A stretch of DNA of 7,445 bases from a virus (lineage: Monodnaviria > Loebvirae > Hofneiviricota > Faserviricetes > Tubulavirales > Inoviridae), in IMG/VR virus record IMGVR_UViG_2734482785_000001, positions 1-7,445 of that record; one strand, written 5' to 3'. The translations under genes were made by a program, and so were the position numbers. The notes under the pieces are model-generated. The model saw only the letters and a list, made by a program, of their open reading frames with translations, searched no databases and had not been told where the DNA came from. Below, piece by piece: positions 510-7,445 of the stretch. Position 1 is the stretch's first letter; each line of letters starts with the position of its first letter.

Positions 510-540
510 GGTCTTTTTTCTTCATTTGGTTAAAATTTGC

Positions 541-596
541 ACCGCGAAGCGGTTCGGGGTTCTGTGACACCCGAACTTTGGTGCGGTTTCCCGCAC
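541..596. other. Cluster of three short GC-rich stem-loops in an AT-rich intergenic spacer
   Basis: H1: 541-545 ACCGC / 549-553 GCGGT, loop GAA. H2: 552-558 GTTCGGG / 570-576 CCCGAAC, 11-nt loop. H3: 581-586 GTGCGG / 591-596 CCGCAC, loop TTTC, followed on the plus strand by TTATTTTTT (597-605). Confidence 0.5.
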
Positions 597-905
597 TTAT
601 TTTTTGTATAGTCCGTTTTTTTCGTTCTCTTCATAAGCTTTATTCACTCGATCATGCCGCCTTTTTTCTGCTTCTTCGTGCGCTTCGTAGAATCGAGTGT
701 GATTCTCTGCCTCTAATGCTTTTCTTTTTATGTTGCTTACCACATCTTTAGCAGCATCTTTTGCATAATTATCAATGAGATAATTAACTATATCCGTCCA
801 CGCTATAGATGTTCCTGCTTCTTGGCTTGCATCGATAGCCAATCGTTCCATTTTGATTTTACGCTCGGCAGTAATTGCCATCGTAGTTCGCTTGAATAGT
901 GCCAT
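597..905 (-). CDS. Putative ribbon-helix-helix (RHH)-like DNA-binding regulator (102 aa), divergent from gII
   Basis: ORF on the minus strand whose start faces the gII start across a 72-bp spacer. The N-terminal region (KIKMERLAIDASQEAG-TS-IAWTDIVNYLI) fits a beta-strand/helix/G-x-S-T turn/helix pattern seen in Arc/CopG/ParD-type RHH proteins. Start codon choice (M1 vs M9) is uncertain. Confidence 0.5.
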   Translation of the reverse strand: MALFKRTTMAITAERKIKMERLAIDASQEAGTSIAWTDIVNYLIDNYAKDAAKDVVSNIKRKALEAENHTRFYEAHEEAEKRRHDRVNKAYEENEKNGLYKK

Positions 906-977: not shown

Positions 978-2165
978 TTGCATGCATCTGTATCTGTGTG
1001 CTATAAATTTTTTATTGATATACATGCATGCAGGTATAAGGGCTTTGTTGTGTTCTACGATTGGTTGAGTATTGAACAGGATTTTGGCTACCAATTACCC
1101 ATCCTTTCAGATGTGGCTTATCAGCGTATTCATCTTGATAGCGGTGAAGCCAGTGCTTTATCTCAACCAACCTTCCAGCATCGTGGTTCTTTCTGTGATG
1201 TTGTCTCGATCTCGATCCGTGGTTCAGTGTTAAAAATGACTGGAAACCCTTCTCGCTGGGGACGTCTTGATAATCTCTTTGGCCTTCCGACTGTAGATAC
1301 TTGTGTCATGGTATTTAATCAGATTCTAACTGAACTGAAATTACCTTTATTTACCAAGTGTACAAAGTTAATGCCTGGACAATCGAAAGAGAATGAAAAA
1401 GCCCATTTGATTACTGATGGTGCTTTAATTAAAGAACTGCATATAACATCAAACAAATCAGTAGGGAAGGGGAATGAGGATGATTATATATCAGGTCTTT
1501 CTACTCAACCTTACAGGAATAGTATTCCACGGTTGCATTCCAATGGGAAATCTGTTGACTGGCTTTCAAAAAAAGGCAATGTCAATCTTATATACCCAAC
1601 AGTATATAACAAAGCTCATGAGCTTGAGTTGCATAGTCTTGCGAAAATCAAAAATAAATTCCCAGATGATTCTAAAGAATTTAATTATATAATGAATGTT
1701 ATTAATTACTGCAAGGACAACGGCATTGTCAGGTTTGAACAGAAATTAAAGTCTCGTTTTCTTCAAAAAAAATCTCTGTGCTATTGGGGACTTTCTGATT
1801 ATTCTTTGTTAAATAAGTTACATTCTGAATTTCTTGAGCTTGATGAAAAGTTATCGGTGAATGCTATGGACTTTGAAACTATTAGTGAACATCTTATTAG
1901 TCGTGGTGTTGTTGACACTACTCGTGCTGCCAATACTACAGCCATGTATGCAATTCAATGGTTTCATGGCCATTCTTTTGATTTAAATAAAAGGCAAGTA
2001 AAACAACATCGAGCAAGATTAAGAATGATAGGGATTGATATTGCTCAAAAATGTAATGTTTCCAAATTTTCTCCTGTTGTTGTGAAACAAACAAGAGAAA
2101 TAACCGTTTCGGATTGTGTTATTCCTTCTTGGTATATAAAGCCATCTTATTTACGTGCAGCTTAA
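978..2165 (+). CDS. II: Gene II-type rolling-circle replication initiation protein (pII family)
   Basis: 395-aa ORF. Recalled Ff pII-like motifs: N-terminal FIDxxxC, NPSRWGRLDNLFG (cf. ASPAKVLQGHNVFG) and VRFEQKLKSRFL (cf. VRFEARIKTRYL). Position and size match Ff gII. The start at 978 is TTG with no clear SD; alternatives are GTG 996 or GTG 1050 (the latter preceded by AAGGG). Confidence 0.85.
   Translation: MHASVSVCYKFFIDIHACRYKGFVVFYDWLSIEQDFGYQLPILSDVAYQRIHLDSGEASALSQPTFQHRGSFCDVVSISIRGSVLKMTGNPSRWGRLDNLFGLPTVDTCVMVFNQILTELKLPLFTKCTKLMPGQSKENEKAHLITDGALIKELHITSNKSVGKGNEDDYISGLSTQPYRNSIPRLHSNGKSVDWLSKKGNVNLIYPTVYNKAHELELHSLAKIKNKFPDDSKEFNYIMNVINYCKDNGIVRFEQKLKSRFLQKKSLCYWGLSDYSLLNKLHSEFLELDEKLSVNAMDFETISEHLISRGVVDTTRAANTTAMYAIQWFHGHSFDLNKRQVKQHRARLRMIGIDIAQKCNVSKFSPVVVKQTREITVSDCVIPSWYIKPSYLRAA
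1866..2165 (+). CDS. X: Candidate gene X-like in-frame internal product (C-terminal 99 aa of pII)
   Basis: In-frame ATG at 1866 (Met297 of 395) preceded by GGTGA about 6 nt upstream; proportionally analogous to Ff pX, which starts at Met300 of 410. Inference by analogy only. Confidence 0.3.
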   Translation: MDFETISEHLISRGVVDTTRAANTTAMYAIQWFHGHSFDLNKRQVKQHRARLRMIGIDIAQKCNVSKFSPVVVKQTREITVSDCVIPSWYIKPSYLRAA

Positions 2166-2178
2166 TATTAGGTGTATT

Positions 2179-2451
2179 ATGATTAAGATTGAAATTAAAC
2201 CTTCTCAAGCTGTTGTAGATACTCGTAGTGGTGTTTCTAAGAGCACTGGTAAACCATATACGATATCTGAACAGTCTGGTTATATTTTCCTCGGTGGGGA
2301 TTACCCTCAACTATTTAAAATTCCTCTTGAACAAGGCCAGGCTCCATATCCGGCTGGTTTGTATCAGTTGCATCCTTCCAGTATTTTTGTTGGTGACTTT
2401 CAAAAATTACGTATTGGTAAAATTGTTTTAATTTCTATTACAGAAAAGTGA
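2179..2451 (+). CDS. V: Gene V-type ssDNA-binding protein
   Basis: 90-aa product MIKIEIKPSQ...PYPAGLYQLHPSS... is clearly similar to recalled M13 and IKe gene V proteins. ATG at 2179 is preceded by AGGTG (2170-2174). The ORF-track start at 2155 overlaps gII and is rejected. Confidence 0.9.
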   Translation: MIKIEIKPSQAVVDTRSGVSKSTGKPYTISEQSGYIFLGGDYPQLFKIPLEQGQAPYPAGLYQLHPSSIFVGDFQKLRIGKIVLISITEK

Positions 2452-2457
2452 TAAGTT

Positions 2458-2685
2458 ATGGAATCTCATGATAAAGTTATTATTGCCTCTATTTGTGATA
2501 TTAAACCCAGTGGTGACTGTAAGGAAGTCAAGTTAACTTTTTCTGAGATTCCATACCAGCAATTCTCTGATATTGATTATTCAACATTTGCTCAATATTG
2601 GGGGGTTGCTTTTACTTCGGTTGTTGCTTTGTATTTATTTTCACATTGCATCAGCTTGATTATCAAGTTAATACGAAATGCATAA
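2458..2685 (+). CDS. Small protein with C-terminal hydrophobic helix in the gVII/gIX position (possible minor coat protein)
   Basis: 75-aa ORF between gV and gVIII; the C-terminal WGVAFTSVVALYLFSHCISLIIKL is a single predicted TM helix. Ff phages have two roughly 32-aa genes here, so the assignment is uncertain. Confidence 0.4.
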   Translation: MESHDKVIIASICDIKPSGDCKEVKLTFSEIPYQQFSDIDYSTFAQYWGVAFTSVVALYLFSHCISLIIKLIRNA

Positions 2686-2698
2686 ATGGTGGATTTTT

Positions 2699-2929
2699 AT
2701 GAAAAAGATCATTTCATTAGGTTCATTACTGGCAGCTTCATTTTCTATGCCTTCTTTTGCTGCTGAATCAGGTACACCTTCTTCAGGGGTTGATTTGAGT
2801 CAACTTACCAATTCAATTGATTTTGGTTCTGTTCTTACTGGTATTATGGCCGTAGCAGCATCATTAGTTGTACTTTATGCTGGTATTGCTGGCGTTCGTT
2901 GGATTCTTCGTACAGTTAAATCGGCTTAA
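2699..2929 (+). CDS. VIII: Gene VIII-type major coat protein precursor
   Basis: 76-aa product with signal peptide MKKIISLGSLLAASFSMPSFA and likely cleavage after SFA, an acidic/polar N-terminal mature segment, a hydrophobic core GIMAVAASLVVLYAGIAG and a basic C-terminus RWILRTVKSA. Followed immediately by a strong terminator, as in Ff. Confidence 0.85.
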   Translation: MKKIISLGSLLAASFSMPSFAAESGTPSSGVDLSQLTNSIDFGSVLTGIMAVAASLVVLYAGIAGVRWILRTVKSA

Positions 2930-2941
2930 TCTATTAAGGTA

Positions 2942-2965
2942 AGGGGAGTTCCTCCCCTTTTTTTG
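2942..2965 (+). terminator. Rho-independent terminator downstream of gVIII
   Basis: Stem 2942-2948 AGGGGAG pairs with 2952-2958 CTCCCCT, loop TTC, followed by a T-run through about 2964. Confidence 0.8.
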
Positions 2966-3015
2966 GTTATGATTTTAAATTTCTGGTATTTAATGAGTTT
3001 TTTCTGGGGACTTTT

Positions 3016-4488
3016 ATGCGCTTGGGCTGTAATCAAAGGGCTATCGCTTTAACATCTCTTTTTATATTTTTTTTCTCTTTATTAATTCCAGTGCAGAAAG
3101 TTTACTCTAATCCTTTACTTGTAACTAGGGCAGTTCTTCCAACTGTGCTTGGTAGGGTGATTTCATCTAGAGCTCTTCAGGTAACGACTACCGAATCTGC
3201 TTATTCATTAATGGTTCGGAATACATCTACAGCAGTATCTAAAACTGTGTTATCAAAATCGCCATCTATTGCCAGCAAGGGCTTTTTCCGTAGTGCTTCA
3301 GGTGCATTGACATGGGCTGGAGTTGGATATTCCGTTGGGTCTCTTACTGCTGAAAATTTTTCTGATAATGGTCGTTATTTAATTGCCACATCTGGTAAAG
3401 CTTTAGGTAACGGTAAATGGGAGGTTAATTTTGGTGATAAAACGTTTACTGTAGATTTTGAACCAACTTCTGATAATCCTTTTGTCATCAGTGCTGACTC
3501 ACTTAATATGAATAGTTATGATACTGTTGATAAGGTAAGTGCCGGTTATCGTTGGTGGCAATGTACTTATGGTACATCTTGTAAGGGGCCATTTATTGTA
3601 GGTTCTGTTACTGGGGTTGCTCAAGGATATTTTAATTCAGTTGCATCAGGTGGTGGTTTAACTTGCCGGGCACCTGATAAATCTTGTAGCTATAAGTTGA
3701 ATATTTTATCGGTAAATGAAGGACAAGAGGGGGCGGTCTCGGTTGTAAAATATATCTATACTTCTTCTTATTTAAATACAGATGGTGAGTCAATAACTAC
3801 TACTATTACTCCTATTCAGGGTATACAGGTGTATTTTAATAAGGATTTTGATAAGGCTCTAGAGGTTCTTTTTTCTGATTATAAGATGGCAACTGATGAT
3901 GATGGGTTTTCTGTTATGGATGGATTAAAGAAAGTTCCTATGGATTTGGATACTCTTGCTAAGATGATAAATAATTTATTAATGGACGCAGCATCCCAGC
4001 CAGATTATCAGGGAGTCCCTGTATCTTCAACAAATCCTGTAACATCGAATGAAATAAAAGTTGCTTATCCTAATTATGGTTCTTTGACAGAATTTGATTA
4101 TATGTATCCAGCTCAAAATTCACCATCTTCTGATGTGAATATTAGTGTGCCTGGATTTTCTTCTGGTGAATCAGGTGGCGGTTCTGATAATGGTACAAAT
4201 AATCCTGATTTTAGTCATCCAGACGTCCCTGAACCGACGCTAGATACACCACCTTCTGCGGAGGAGATACTTCGTCCAATTAAAGAACTTTTTAATCAGT
4301 ATCGAGATTTAGAAGTACGTCCATCAGGTCTTTCTGCTACATGTCCTGTTGCTAAATTTAATGTGTTTGATAGAGATTACGTTATTGATATGCATTGCGT
4401 ATTTTTGGAGGAATACCGTTCTTTTATTGGTGTCATTTCTTCTTTGATATGGGCTTTAATTTCCTTGCGTATTTTGCTTTCTACGTGA
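3016..4488 (+). CDS. III: Gene III-type minor coat / adsorption protein
   Basis: 490-aa ORF with SD GGGGA 5 nt upstream. N-terminal signal peptide, Cys pairs (WWQCTYGTSCKG, LTCRAPDKSCSY), a Gly/Ser-rich linker (SGESGGGSDNGTNN) and a C-terminal hydrophobic anchor (FIGVISSLIWALISLRILL); position after gVIII. Confidence 0.85.
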   Translation: MRLGCNQRAIALTSLFIFFFSLLIPVQKVYSNPLLVTRAVLPTVLGRVISSRALQVTTTESAYSLMVRNTSTAVSKTVLSKSPSIASKGFFRSASGALTWAGVGYSVGSLTAENFSDNGRYLIATSGKALGNGKWEVNFGDKTFTVDFEPTSDNPFVISADSLNMNSYDTVDKVSAGYRWWQCTYGTSCKGPFIVGSVTGVAQGYFNSVASGGGLTCRAPDKSCSYKLNILSVNEGQEGAVSVVKYIYTSSYLNTDGESITTTITPIQGIQVYFNKDFDKALEVLFSDYKMATDDDGFSVMDGLKKVPMDLDTLAKMINNLLMDAASQPDYQGVPVSSTNPVTSNEIKVAYPNYGSLTEFDYMYPAQNSPSSDVNISVPGFSSGESGGGSDNGTNNPDFSHPDVPEPTLDTPPSAEEILRPIKELFNQYRDLEVRPSGLSATCPVAKFNVFDRDYVIDMHCVFLEEYRSFIGVISSLIWALISLRILLST

Positions 4489-4503
4489 CATTGAGGTTTT
4501 AAA

Positions 4504-4797
4504 ATGGCTTTATTTGGATTGTTATTTAGTATCGTTAATGTTCTTTTAGGTTTTATTTTTAGAACTGTTATCATTAGGTTTGTTTTGTTTTTTGGACTTC
4601 TTTTTGTTGTTCATGAGTTCATTTATGTATTATCTTCATGGATACCATTTAATTTTAACATACCAGCTTTATTTCGAGCTTTACCTGCTCCTATGTGGTA
4701 TTTTTTTGATTTATTTAAGTTCAATGAAGGTTTTCAGTTAATATTTAACGCATATATTACTCGTTTTATTATTCGTAGAATTCCGATTATTGGTTAG
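4504..4797 (+). CDS. VI: Gene VI-type minor coat protein (hydrophobic)
   Basis: 97-aa highly hydrophobic ORF with SD GAGG 7 nt upstream of ATG 4504. Position between gIII and gI and size are comparable to Ff pVI (112 aa). Confidence 0.7.
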   Translation: MALFGLLFSIVNVLLGFIFRTVIIRFVLFFGLLFVVHEFIYVLSSWIPFNFNIPALFRALPAPMWYFFDLFKFNEGFQLIFNAYITRFIIRRIPIIG

Positions 4798-4801
4798 TGT
4801 T

Positions 4802-5839
4802 ATGCCTATTTCTGCTTATGTTGGTTCTTTAGGTAGTGGTAAATCATACGAGGTTGTTTCTAGTGTTATTGTACCTGCTTGTTCTTCTGGGCGTCGTGTT
4901 GTTACTAATATTTACGGTATAAATAAAGATAAAATTCATGCTTATTGCATGAAAAAATCAAAATCGGGGAAAGATATATCCTTAGGTGATGTTATTTATG
5001 TTTCTAATGATGATATCAAAGCTGATGATTTTTTCCCATATAAAGATTCTCGTCCTGAAGATACATTTTGTCAGTATGGAGATTTGATTGTTATTGATGA
5101 ATCCTGGCGCATTTGGGATAGTGACAAATCCATTTGTGAGAATCATCGTTCATTTATTGCAGAGCATCGTCATTTTACTAATATTGAAACTGGTGTTTGT
5201 TGTGACCTTGTTGTTATAAATCAGGAGGTTTCTTCTTTACCTCGTTTTATTAAAGCAAGGTTAGACACTACTTTTAGAATGCAAAAGCATATTGCTATTG
5301 GCATGAAGAGTCGTTATCGTGTCGATGTTTTTAATGGTTCTAAACTTTATAAGTCAAACAAGATTACAAGTTATCAGAGGAAATATAATCCAGATATATT
5401 TCCTTTGTATAAATCATATGAGAATGGGGATGGCAAAGAACTTACTGTTGATAATCGGGCTAGCATTTTAGGCAAGAAAAGTTTGTATTTTGTTGTTCTT
5501 GCTATGATTCTCATTTTCATATTTAGCATTGGTTATCTTTATAGGTTTTTTAATGGTGGTTTGGTCAAGAGTGATGCTTCTGACTTGCCGCCTCAGGACT
5601 CTAATTTCCGTTCTGTTAATTTTAATTCAGTTCCTGAAATTCCAAATACACCTAAATTATCTTCAACTTGGCGTATCGTTGGAAAACTTGAAAGAGAAGG
5701 GCGTAGTTATGTGATAATTACAAATAATTCAGGTCTTGTCCGTATGGTTCCTGCTTCTACCTTTAATTATCAAGGTGTTTTACTTACAGGAATTGTTGAT
5801 GGTGAGCTTGTTACTTTTTATTCAGGTGGTGACAAATGA
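4802..5839 (+). CDS. I: Gene I-type assembly ATPase (Zot-family P-loop NTPase)
   Basis: Walker A GSLGSGKS about 10 residues from the N-terminus (cf. M13 GKLGSGKT), Walker B LIVIDESW, and an internal TM segment LYFVVLAMILIFIFSIGYLY. ATG 4802 is preferred over the ORF-track TTG at 4790, which overlaps the gVI stop. Stop overlaps the gIV start (ATGA at 5836-5839). Confidence 0.9.
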   Translation: MPISAYVGSLGSGKSYEVVSSVIVPACSSGRRVVTNIYGINKDKIHAYCMKKSKSGKDISLGDVIYVSNDDIKADDFFPYKDSRPEDTFCQYGDLIVIDESWRIWDSDKSICENHRSFIAEHRHFTNIETGVCCDLVVINQEVSSLPRFIKARLDTTFRMQKHIAIGMKSRYRVDVFNGSKLYKSNKITSYQRKYNPDIFPLYKSYENGDGKELTVDNRASILGKKSLYFVVLAMILIFIFSIGYLYRFFNGGLVKSDASDLPPQDSNFRSVNFNSVPEIPNTPKLSSTWRIVGKLEREGRSYVIITNNSGLVRMVPASTFNYQGVLLTGIVDGELVTFYSGGDK

Positions 5840-7026
5840 AACGTTTAATATCTCTGTTCTTGATGTTTTTTAGTTTTTCTTGTTTTTCTGCTACTGAGCT
5901 TGAAATAAAAAAACTTGCTTTACCTGAGGCTATTTCTTTGATTTATTCAGAGGTCTTTAAGGTTCCTTATATGATTTCTCCTGATTTAGCCAATGACCAA
6001 CGCCTTGTTTCATTTAAAATAACCAAGGATGTTAATGAGCGTGATTTTATTGAACGTTATTTTTCTAATATGAACATTAAAATTCATACAAAAAAAGGTG
6101 TTGACTACATAACGCCTTTTAAACCTCAAGAAAAAAAAACCATTTTAAAGGTTTTTGTGTATTCTCCATTAAATCGTTCAGTTGGTTATTTGTCTGATAT
6201 TCTCTCTGGTTTTGTATCTGGTCAATTTGGAAATTCAGGAAATATAAGCACTAACATATCCAGTACTTCTTCTTCAGGGGCTTCTAATAATTTCAATAGG
6301 TTAGGTGATTCTCTTGTGTATTATGGCACACAAAAAGATATTGACATTATCAAGAGCATATTGCCAACCATTGATACGGTTCCTGATGAGGTTGTTGTTT
6401 CAGGATATGTTTTTGAGGTTCAGACTGGTCAGAATGATGGCTCAGGATTTTTACTTGCTGCTAAAGTTATATCTGAAAAATTTAATATTTCTCTTGGCTC
6501 TAACATTAGTACTTCTGGTGATTTTTTGAGTTTAAAAACAGGTTCAATTGATGCAATTTATACATTACTTTCAACTGATAACAGATTTTCTGTTGTATCT
6601 TCGCCAAGATTGCGCGTGAAGAATAATACAGAGGCTTCTTTTTCTGTAGGTGCCGATGTTCCTGTTTTAGGTAGTGTTACAGTTAATGGTAATAATTCAA
6701 CCCAGTCTGTTGAGTATCGTAGCTCAGGGGTTTTGTTTAGAGTGAAACCATCTATTAAAATCAACGCTATTGATTTGAACATTCAACAGCAGCTTTCTAA
6801 TTTTGTTGCAACTGATACTGGCGTTAATAATTCTCCGACGCTTTTAAAGCGAGATGTGACAACAGACGTTGTTATGAATGATGGTGATATTATTTTGATA
6901 GGAGGCCTTGCAGAGCAGAAGGATTCTAAATCTTCGTCTGGTTGGTCTATTTTTGGCTCACGTTCATCAGAAAATTCTAAGACAGATATTGTTGTGATGC
7001 TTCAGGTTCGCAAAGTACCAAGATGA
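5836..7026 (+). CDS. IV: Gene IV-type secretin (outer-membrane export channel)
   Basis: 396-aa ORF with SD AGGTGG upstream and an N-terminal signal peptide. Recalled pIV-like segments: VSGYVFEVQTGQ (cf. IEGLIFEVQQG), SSPRLRVKNN...VGADVPV (cf. SVPRILTLSG...VGQNVPF), DGDIILIGGL (cf. DGQTLLLGGL), and a C-terminal S-domain-like tail. Confidence 0.9.
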   Translation: MKRLISLFLMFFSFSCFSATELEIKKLALPEAISLIYSEVFKVPYMISPDLANDQRLVSFKITKDVNERDFIERYFSNMNIKIHTKKGVDYITPFKPQEKKTILKVFVYSPLNRSVGYLSDILSGFVSGQFGNSGNISTNISSTSSSGASNNFNRLGDSLVYYGTQKDIDIIKSILPTIDTVPDEVVVSGYVFEVQTGQNDGSGFLLAAKVISEKFNISLGSNISTSGDFLSLKTGSIDAIYTLLSTDNRFSVVSSPRLRVKNNTEASFSVGADVPVLGSVTVNGNNSTQSVEYRSSGVLFRVKPSIKINAIDLNIQQQLSNFVATDTGVNNSPTLLKRDVTTDVVMNDGDIILIGGLAEQKDSKSSSGWSIFGSRSSENSKTDIVVMLQVRKVPR

Positions 7027-7029
7027 GAA

Positions 7030-7071
7030 TTCTGTCCGATCCCCGCAGCTTTGCGAGGAGAACGGACAGAA
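7030..7071 (+). other. Imperfect hairpin immediately after the gIV stop (candidate terminator or packaging-signal-like element)
   Basis: Stem 7030-7038 TTCTGTCCG pairs with 7063-7071 CGGACAGAA around a 24-nt partly self-complementary loop. No T-run directly follows; AGATGA occurs at 7021-7026 and 7071-7076. Confidence 0.45.
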
Positions 7072-7129
7072 GATGAATCTTGGTTTATGGCATTTTTTAA
7101 GCAATATGACGATGTTTGTTTTATTGTTT

Positions 7130-7445
7130 TTATGCCGTCAGGCATGGAAGGCGGCATGATGATGTTTCATGTTGTGCCTTTGGTTGTCCGCCGATACCAG
7201 GGAGATATGTCATAGTGCGCGGAACAGCGCAACGCGCCCCCTGCAAAGCCGGGTTTTCATTGCAGTTATCGAGACGAACGGCGCAAGACGTGAGTCGTCC
7301 AGGCGGCGTTAATGCTTGTTGATGGAATTGATCGCTTTCATCGGGCATGACAAAATCTAAAAGCCGGTGACGGGGTTTCGTTAACTGTGGTGGTTTGTTT
7401 CTCCTGGTATCCGGCAAGCCTAAATTCCTCTTTACGGGCTGATGC
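7130..7445. other. GC-rich (about 55%) flank with no convincing ORF; host flank or structured phage non-coding region
   Basis: Hand count of 7201-7320 gives about 55-58% GC against about 32% in a gIV sample (6001-6060). The only ORFs (7116..7322 plus, 7130..7417 minus) overlap on opposite strands and have Pro/Arg/Cys-biased composition. Confidence 0.4.

Follow-up and report, generated by a model that had tools for sequence, protein, structure and literature searches.

A temperate filamentous phage of Escherichia coli that encodes its own secretin and inserts at dif, probably by a CTXphi-type Xer mechanism

Filamentous phages that integrate at the chromosomal dif site have been described from several enterobacteria. 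YpfPhi of Yersinia pestis and CUS-1 of Escherichia coli O18:K1:H7 use inverted XerC/XerD sites for dif integration and carry a secretion module of two open reading frames (ORFs) (PMC4266046), and both are listed as members of the CTXphi class (PMC4246890; PMC4266046). In CTXphi itself, the phage attachment site (attP) comprises attP1, with a central region of 12 bp, and attP2, with one of 5-7 bp; XerC alone catalyzes an irreversible integration for which homology to dif is needed only beside the XerC arm (PMC4246890). UPphi901 is a dif-integrating tandem inovirus with nine core genes, including gene IV, that is found in more than 200 enterobacterial genomes (PMC7307601). The UPphi core genes are about 70% identical at the amino-acid level to those of IKe and I2-2, with at least 98% identity among members (Shapiro and Putonti, 2020, PMC7307601). 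The subject of this analysis is the IMG/VR virus record IMGVR_UViG_2734482785_000001 (Inoviridae), a stretch of 7,445 nucleotides (nt) that is referred to as the window, together with its genes, its attP and its relatives in bacterial chromosomes.

The window is a dif-integrating temperate phage of the kind already described, namely a CTXphi-type Xer-dependent inovirus of Enterobacterales with its own secretin. Very probably, it represents one complete circular genome of a temperate E. coli inovirus in which an Ff-like productive cycle and a phage-encoded secretin are combined with CTXphi-type Xer integration at dif and with a regulator cassette controlling gene II (gII). At the level of sequence, support comes from the gene content, the attP hairpin, the integration site and its junctions, tandem arrays, circular unit-length forms and mosaic relatives. 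An earlier note on this DNA had considered such a phage unusual, a view that does not hold given the published dif-integrating enterobacterial inoviruses YpfPhi/CUS-1 and UPphi, with gene IV in the core of UPphi901.

The source contig, JUCF01000057.1 of assembly GCA_000798235.1, was identified by an exact match of its pIII protein, which NCBI lists as E. coli; an exact 38-mer scan of species-representative genomes and a second DNA pattern run against the viral collection gave no match. The contig is 7,465 nt long, and the window corresponds to its first 7,445 nt. Because the contig ends with the same 20 nt with which it begins, the window is one complete circular unit whose end joins its start. 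The same end-to-start junction is found between the copies inside tandem prophages. Circular unit-length forms are seen for this phage (JUCF01000057.1) and for a related phage in E. coli A37, which occurs there in two states, a tandem prophage at dif and a circular record of 7,439 bp.

Integration at dif and the attP hairpin

The proposal that this is an integrative phage is borne out by copies at E. coli dif beside hipA that are 99.9% identical to the window, occur singly or in tandem, and are bordered by hybrid attL and attR sites. An exact look-up of orf133 led to chromosomal contigs with such copies. Single copies (99.9%) lie beside hipBA on contigs of GCA_025521015.1 and GCA_025429165.1, and GCA_045754795.1 carries a tandem dimer (99.9%) whose internal junction is identical to the end-to-start junction of the window; one further chromosomal copy is disrupted by an insertion sequence (IS). 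In E. coli 300709, an 87% relative occupies dif as a tandem dimer, and a 98% relative is located at hipA in an IMG isolate genome. The attL site consists of host GGTGCGCATAA followed by phage TGTAGTATGCG..., and attR joins phage ...ACATTGGTACGCATAA to TGTATATTATGTTAAATCATG, a rebuilt dif whose joined host part is also given as TGTATATTATGTTAAAT. In the integrated copies, both sites break exactly after base 16. Insertion at dif, a crossover at the border between XerC arm and central region, and restoration of a functional dif on one side are features of a CTXphi-type integrative mobile element exploiting Xer (IMEX), and they were read in the single and tandem 99.9% copies, E. coli 300709, the 98% relative and E. 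coli UTAK-3. Judged by their sequences, attL and attR are the hybrids that would be expected from an exchange on the XerC side. As is also typical of such an IMEX, profile searches found no recombinase or integrase domain in any ORF of the window, and without a phage-encoded integrase, lysogeny would depend on the host.

The dif-like hairpin that had been noticed from the sequence is confirmed as a predicted structure. Positions 3-103 of the plus strand form an imperfect inverted repeat with a DNA fold of -38.2 kcal/mol (z = -11.9), and none of 200 shuffled sequences was as stable (0/200). The left arm of this forked hairpin consists of a XerC-type site, GGTACGCATAA (6-16), an 11-nt central region, TGTAGTATGCG (17-27), and a XerD-type site, TTATGTTGAAA (28-38). 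A GC clamp and loop follow (39-72), and the right arm (73-102) is an inverted copy of the left with a central region of only 5 nt (85-89). Because 11 nt on the left face 5 nt on the right, six bases (19-24) would bulge out. The attP thus shows the two inverted dif-like sites, the hairpin with XerC and XerD arms, and the bulged central region of a CTXphi-type IMEX. A literal search for E. coli dif with up to three mismatches returned no match in the window; the site, with its 11-nt central region, was recognized by reading the letters directly.

Similar hairpins are present in the relatives that were fetched (E. coli 300709, Lelliottia nimipressuralis, E. coli UTAK-3 and one further locus), and a pattern search detected the same attP architecture in 44 IMG/VR contigs, whose loci are a mosaic of modules. 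One forked attP hairpin is common to more than 40 mosaic enterobacterial inoviruses. Across 40 distinct attP copies, standard pairs occupy 94% of pair cells, the TGT after the XerC arm varies only in two degenerate copies, and the bulge is free to vary. Compensatory changes occur at pairs 4/102, 5/101 and 6/100, with double changes just outside the XerC arm (TTGG/CCAA vs CCAG/CTGG vs TTAG/CTAA). Such compensatory double changes argue for selection on the fold and not only on a duplex binding site. As a separate observation, the interval of E. coli UTAK-3 that separates the secretin gene from the following prophage copy (15276-16520) contains two additional, degenerate attP-like hairpins, one at 15801 and the other at 16265. 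A partial GC-rich block comes before each of them, and the arrangement resembles stacked remnants of further Xer-dependent elements.

In the mechanism proposed here, the packaged plus strand would fold over 3-103 into the forked hairpin, with its XerC and XerD sites and bulged 11/5-nt central region, and this single-stranded DNA would be the substrate for integration. Host XerC, acting alone, would swap one strand pair with chromosomal dif directly past the XerC arm, where the bases TGT(A) are common to both. Replication would then fix the insertion, so that attL, beside hipA, is non-functional while attR provides a working dif, and repeated insertion would give rise to tandem arrays. As has been shown for CTXphi, rolling-circle synthesis running from one origin to the following one could then release new plus strands from such arrays. 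The putative origin lies about 450 nt inside attL; a full genome could therefore not be produced from a single prophage but could be from a tandem array, which fits the CTXphi model.

Several points weigh against this proposal and have to be set beside it. The attL and attR sequences fit a single- or a double-stranded substrate, and would equally be expected from recombination between a double-stranded attP and dif. An atypical attR, GGTACGCATAATGTACTCGAT... / GGTACGCATAATGTACTCGATAAAAAT, is found in the 99.9% copy on a 5.2-Mb contig of GCA_013345705.1; this copy lies in another chromosomal context, without hipA, and an AraC-type gene and an IS3-family transposase come after its right junction. 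Only the circular contig is available for the source assembly, and it is compatible with a prophage, a replicative form or both. The lineage is known from sequence alone, with virion production presumed, and the likely nick site is placed by eight identities in an 11-base loop. The ambiguity of the junctions leads to the most serious alternative, in which dif integration proceeds via the double-stranded replicative form with the left arm alone as attP, as in VGJphi, and is reversible and excisable. According to a review of YpfPhi, new copies can insert between resident ones and the phage is mainly extrachromosomal in some hosts, which would suit this route (PMC4266046). We nevertheless consider it unlikely: central regions of 11 nt and 5 nt are both unsuitable as duplex substrates according to the CTXphi literature (PMC4246890), tandem arrays are common, and all 40 attP copies (40/40) retain the inverted right arm, with compensatory changes that preserve the stem, for which a duplex site would have no need.

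Integration of a single-stranded attP by XerC is thus preferred, and two other explanations of the window are less plausible still. It is very unlikely that the window is a decaying or domesticated prophage that forms no virions, with a circular contig created by assembly collapse of a tandem repeat. The unit-length contig does break at ...GGTACGCATAATGTA, the last base common to attP and attR (the next base is G in attP and T in dif), which is where a graph branching at an integrated copy would be expected to break, and a 7,255-bp unit-length contig of Lelliottia nimipressuralis (a 70-80% relative with the same attP) is likewise broken within attP. These break points suggest, but do not prove, that the assembly graph branched at an integrated copy. 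An IS-riddled copy exists as well, and all knowledge of the lineage comes from assemblies. Decay is contradicted by the ten phage genes, all of which are intact and 99.9% conserved across independent assemblies; moreover, the E. coli A37 relative was assembled as a separate circle alongside its prophage, and UPphi virion DNA has been detected in supernatants (PMC7307601). A plain episomal Ff-class phage, in which the dif-like site and the GC-rich stretch are incidental or host-derived, is so improbable that it needs little further discussion. The Ff-like gene order and the fact that the sole named phage match is the episomal If1 would agree with it, but it is already refuted by near-identical copies at dif with exact hybrid junctions and by the presence of the GC-rich block inside the tandem units.

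Gene row, probable origin and regulator cassette

The Ff-style gene row that had been recognized in the window stands. From the ORF listing and profile searches, the order II(X)-V-orf75-VIII-III-VI-I-IV is intact on the plus strand and includes the pIV secretin; a one-strand gene order, an origin-bearing intergenic region and a phage-encoded pIV secretin are what characterizes Inoviridae of Ff architecture. Gene II, the rolling-circle replication initiator, occupies 1050-2165 on the plus strand (Pfam G2P_X_C 2.9e-24 and Phage_CRI; phrog_702 9e-106) and contains a gene X-type C-terminal domain. GTG 1050 is taken as its start in preference to TTG 978: alignments to relatives begin only at 1051, and the gene called in JUCF01000057.1 starts at 1050. 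The gII protein is 80% identical to that of If1 and about 52% identical to that of Alteromonas phiAFP1, and it also resembles RstA-labelled Reps of Pseudomonas phages; Ff gII was not found in this search at E<1e-5. All further genes of the row lie on the plus strand. Gene V (2179-2451) encodes the single-stranded DNA-binding protein (Pfam Phage_DNA_bind 1.5e-24). A single 75-aa ORF, orf75 (2458-2685; phrog_3679 5.8e-16), encodes a small membrane-anchored protein at the gVII/gIX position, where it stands in for separate gVII and gIX and is kept in relatives. Gene VIII, for the major coat protein (2699-2929), matches phrog_2186 'virion structural protein' (1.9e-24) and scores 21.8 bits against Pfam Phage_Coat_B, slightly below the cutoff of 23.5. 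Gene III, the adsorption/minor coat protein (3016-4488; phrog_3942 2.5e-82), is assigned by position; it has no Pfam match, and its translation, read by eye, shows a signal-like N-terminus and a hydrophobic, anchor-like C-terminus. Gene VI (4504-4797; Pfam DUF2523 5.6e-10) encodes a minor coat protein, and gene I (4802-5839; Pfam Zot 2.6e-26) the Zot-type assembly ATPase.

Gene IV (5836-7026) encodes the outer-membrane secretin (Pfam Secretin 1e-23; phrog_1012 'protein IV of M13' 1.1e-119). This pIV is 45-47% identical to proteins of gut-metagenome inoviruses; with f1 pIV it shares 29% identity across 52% of its length. GspD-type secretins are also encoded by several unrelated E. coli dif prophages. 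CTXphi is not known to encode a secretin and uses that of its host. Distant secretin-encoding relatives with pIV 47-51% identical are present in Gilliamella and in a Pasteurellaceae isolate (Bisgaard taxon 45).

Between attP and gII, two ORFs are read on the minus strand. One is orf133 (108-509), an accessory gene adjoining attP for which profile searches gave no family match and no convincing fold match was obtained; the other is orf102 (597-905), described below. Both belong to real protein families, and 108-905 is therefore coding. The window is also not a permutation of a known episomal genome, the case in which a plain Ff-class phage with 108-905 non-coding had been envisaged. No phage record matches the window as a whole, and the only named phage match is If1, over 18% of the window at 74.6%. 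Immediately after gIV, a hairpin predicted on the plus strand at 7030-7071 is a candidate terminator and/or packaging signal, a role suggested by its position; it is kept only in the close lineage (E. coli 300709, the 98% relative and Lelliottia nimipressuralis). A search of Rfam found no credible RNA family in the window.

The probable core of the plus-strand origin lies at 536-597 on the plus strand. Its central, nick-type hairpin, GTTCGGG-GTTCTGTGACA-CCCGAAC, has a stem of 552-558 and 570-576 and an 11-nt loop (559-569), and further hairpins flank it before (541-553) and after (580-597). The f1 origin hairpin, GAGTCCAC-GTTCTTTAATA-GTGGACTC, carries the gpII nick. Since its loop is of equal length and 8/11 loop bases match those of the window, 536-597 is read as the likely origin core. 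The 60-nt element accompanies this gII family in every locus examined, including If1, where it is located at 5045-5101 and is 91% identical, and Alteromonas phiAFP1. The third hairpin shows compensatory changes between the window and If1, E. coli 300709 and the 98% relative.

A literature search with the sequence of this origin-like element returned no match. About 434 plasmids, 389 of them conjugative and mostly IncF, also carry the element (window 536-591), at about 91% identity. Two plasmids were inspected (element at 4001-4070 and at 3501-3556, respectively), and neither has a gII nearby. The element forms the first 60-70 nt of a segment of about 630 bp that is conserved between the two, and on the plasmid with the element at 3501-3556, the one whose ORFs were read, this segment abuts a broken DDE (rve) transposase gene. 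Given this IS-adjacent segment, a plasmid-borne phage origin or a single-strand initiation site is less favoured; it is more likely that the plasmid element may have spread as a passenger beside an insertion sequence than that it is a working origin.

The regulator gene orf102 (597-905, minus strand; 94 aa if the start is ATG at 881) is divergent from gII and encodes a small DNA-binding-type protein that looks ribbon-helix-helix-like, with a coiled-coil tail. The divergent promoter/operator region extends from 906 to 1049, and all four genome copies of ATGCATG (4/4) lie within 952-1030, between orf102 and gII. Similarity to E. coli 300709, the 98% relative and E. coli UTAK-3 stops at 592 and resumes at 1051. 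In the corresponding slot (6165-6858), the 98% relative carries an unrelated regulator of 162 aa with an HTH_3 domain and its own upstream region. Because 593-1049 is swapped between relatives, it behaves as an exchangeable immunity-type cassette, like rstR in CTXphi, and this suggests that the window and the 98% relative are heteroimmune variants. The divergent regulator had been noted as a temperate-style addition. Its presence is upheld, but it is not an addition of temperate phages only, as the episomal If1 (U02303.1) has an intact, unannotated orf102 homologue of 67 aa on the minus strand at 5119-5322, in the annotated 'major intergenic region'; the regulator is therefore not specific to temperate phages. 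In If1, an IS200/IS605-type insertion is present at 5388-7086, between the regulator and gII, with a TnpA-like ORF at 5388-5831 on the minus strand. If1 ORF348 looks TnpB-like, and the gII reading frame is split in U02303.1.

For the productive cycle, these assignments would imply that gII nicks the plus-strand origin, probably at the hairpin 552-576, and that gV coats the single strands. The filament would be built of pVIII, pIII, pVI and orf75, and virions would be extruded by pI and the phage's own pIV secretin. The protein of orf102 would presumably act as a repressor, forming with the ATGCATG-rich operator region a swappable immunity-type cassette that controls gII.

The GC-rich stretch

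A GC-discordant flank had also been described. The discordance is real, with 49.2% GC in 7027-7445 against 34.9% in 1050-7026, but a host flank is rejected, as each copy in the tandem arrays contains the stretch and the circular contig is closed by it. Its conserved part is a block of 50.9% GC between gIV and attP (7120-7445). In the f1 genome, GC content is 57.5% over the 280 nt that separate gene IV from the nick hairpin and 33% beyond. This 280-nt region of f1 holds the packaging signal and the hairpins of the minus-strand origin. With a GC-rich hairpin region at the same position in f1, the stretch appears ordinary for this type of genome.

Parts of the stretch are 74-96% identical to dif-integrating inoviruses with unrelated structural and replication genes, and blocks such as ATGCCGTCAGGCATGGRAGGCG and TTGATGRAATTGAT are common to otherwise unrelated dif-integrating inoviruses. 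A conserved protein in the block was considered and rejected, as the small plus-strand ORFs vary in length and frame between lineages in alignments read by eye. On the minus strand of E. coli 300709, RefSeq lists an 82-aa 'hypothetical protein' (12133-12381) whose start falls within the XerC arm and whose frame is shifted compared with the window; this annotation of the GC-rich block is probably spurious. RNAalifold found no covariation in the block, and our best guess is that it is probably cis-acting DNA. One possible reading, offered tentatively and thought less probable than not, is that the attP hairpin and the GC-rich block form a portable lysogeny cassette that moves between unrelated inovirus backbones, and that the window is an If1-type replicon (origin, small regulator and gII) carrying it. 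On this reading, If1 and similar classical episomal phages would be derived forms that lack the cassette. The block might also have a cis-acting or regulatory function of its own, tied to Xer integration or packaging.

Comparison with described phages

The full gene set had been taken to mark the classical episomal Ff/IKe lineage. This placement is not supported, since no DNA of the window matches IKe, I2-2 or Ff, its pIV is distant, and only the module of gII, origin and regulator is If1-like; its genome-wide similarity to the classical Ff, IKe and If1 species groups (Inovirus, Lineavirus and Infulavirus) is too low for membership. The likeness to If1 (Infulavirus) lies in gII (80% amino-acid identity), the origin-type element (91%) and the intact orf102 homologue, whereas If1 differs in having no dif-like site, no detectable similarity in genes V to IV, and the IS200/IS605-type insertion. 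A laboratory phage, If1, is in this way tied to temperate relatives by a common origin-regulator-gII module. Divergence in the remaining genes is also seen among the E. coli dif prophages whose gII and gV are about 94% identical to the window at the nucleotide level, as their morphogenesis proteins are only 28-49% identical.

With this phage, the dif-integrating filamentous phages of Enterobacterales that encode a secretin gain a third structural lineage, beside YpfPhi/CUS-1 and UPphi; the current understanding of filamentous-phage lysogeny is unchanged. In practical terms, the exact attP, attL and attR coordinates can be used for annotating prophages at the hipA-dif locus, and the circular 'plasmid' contigs of 7-8 kb in E. 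coli assemblies call for caution because they can be such phages. With UPphi, the window shares an Ff architecture of genes I-VIII including IV, a dif-like site at the genome start with adjoining reverse ORFs, and tandem dif integration in E. coli and its relatives. It differs in having no DNA match to IKe/I2-2 (blastn) and a pIV that is 29% identical to f1, which places it outside UPphi as judged indirectly, via IKe/I2-2 and pIV. YpfPhi and CUS-1 resemble it in their lack of an integrase, in the dif rebuilt at attR, and in tandem arrays together with extrachromosomal forms (PMC4266046, PMC4246890). They also share its layout of attL, accessory ORFs, divergent regulator, replication, morphogenesis, secretion, extra DNA and attR. 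Their regulator is of the RstR type, with a helix-turn-helix, compared with the small ribbon-helix-helix-like one of the window, a comparison made by description only.

The closest parallel for the mode of integration is CTXphi. Its attP arms are about 90 nt apart, in contrast to the short GC clamp and 14-nt loop of the window. In both, attP appears as a plus-strand forked hairpin with one long and one short central region (11/5 nt in the window) and homology to dif only beside the XerC arm (PMC4246890). Both form tandem prophages and have a divergent repressor cassette differing from strain to strain (PMC4246890). To this likeness, the window and its relatives add a single attP hairpin that is common to a highly mosaic phage population.

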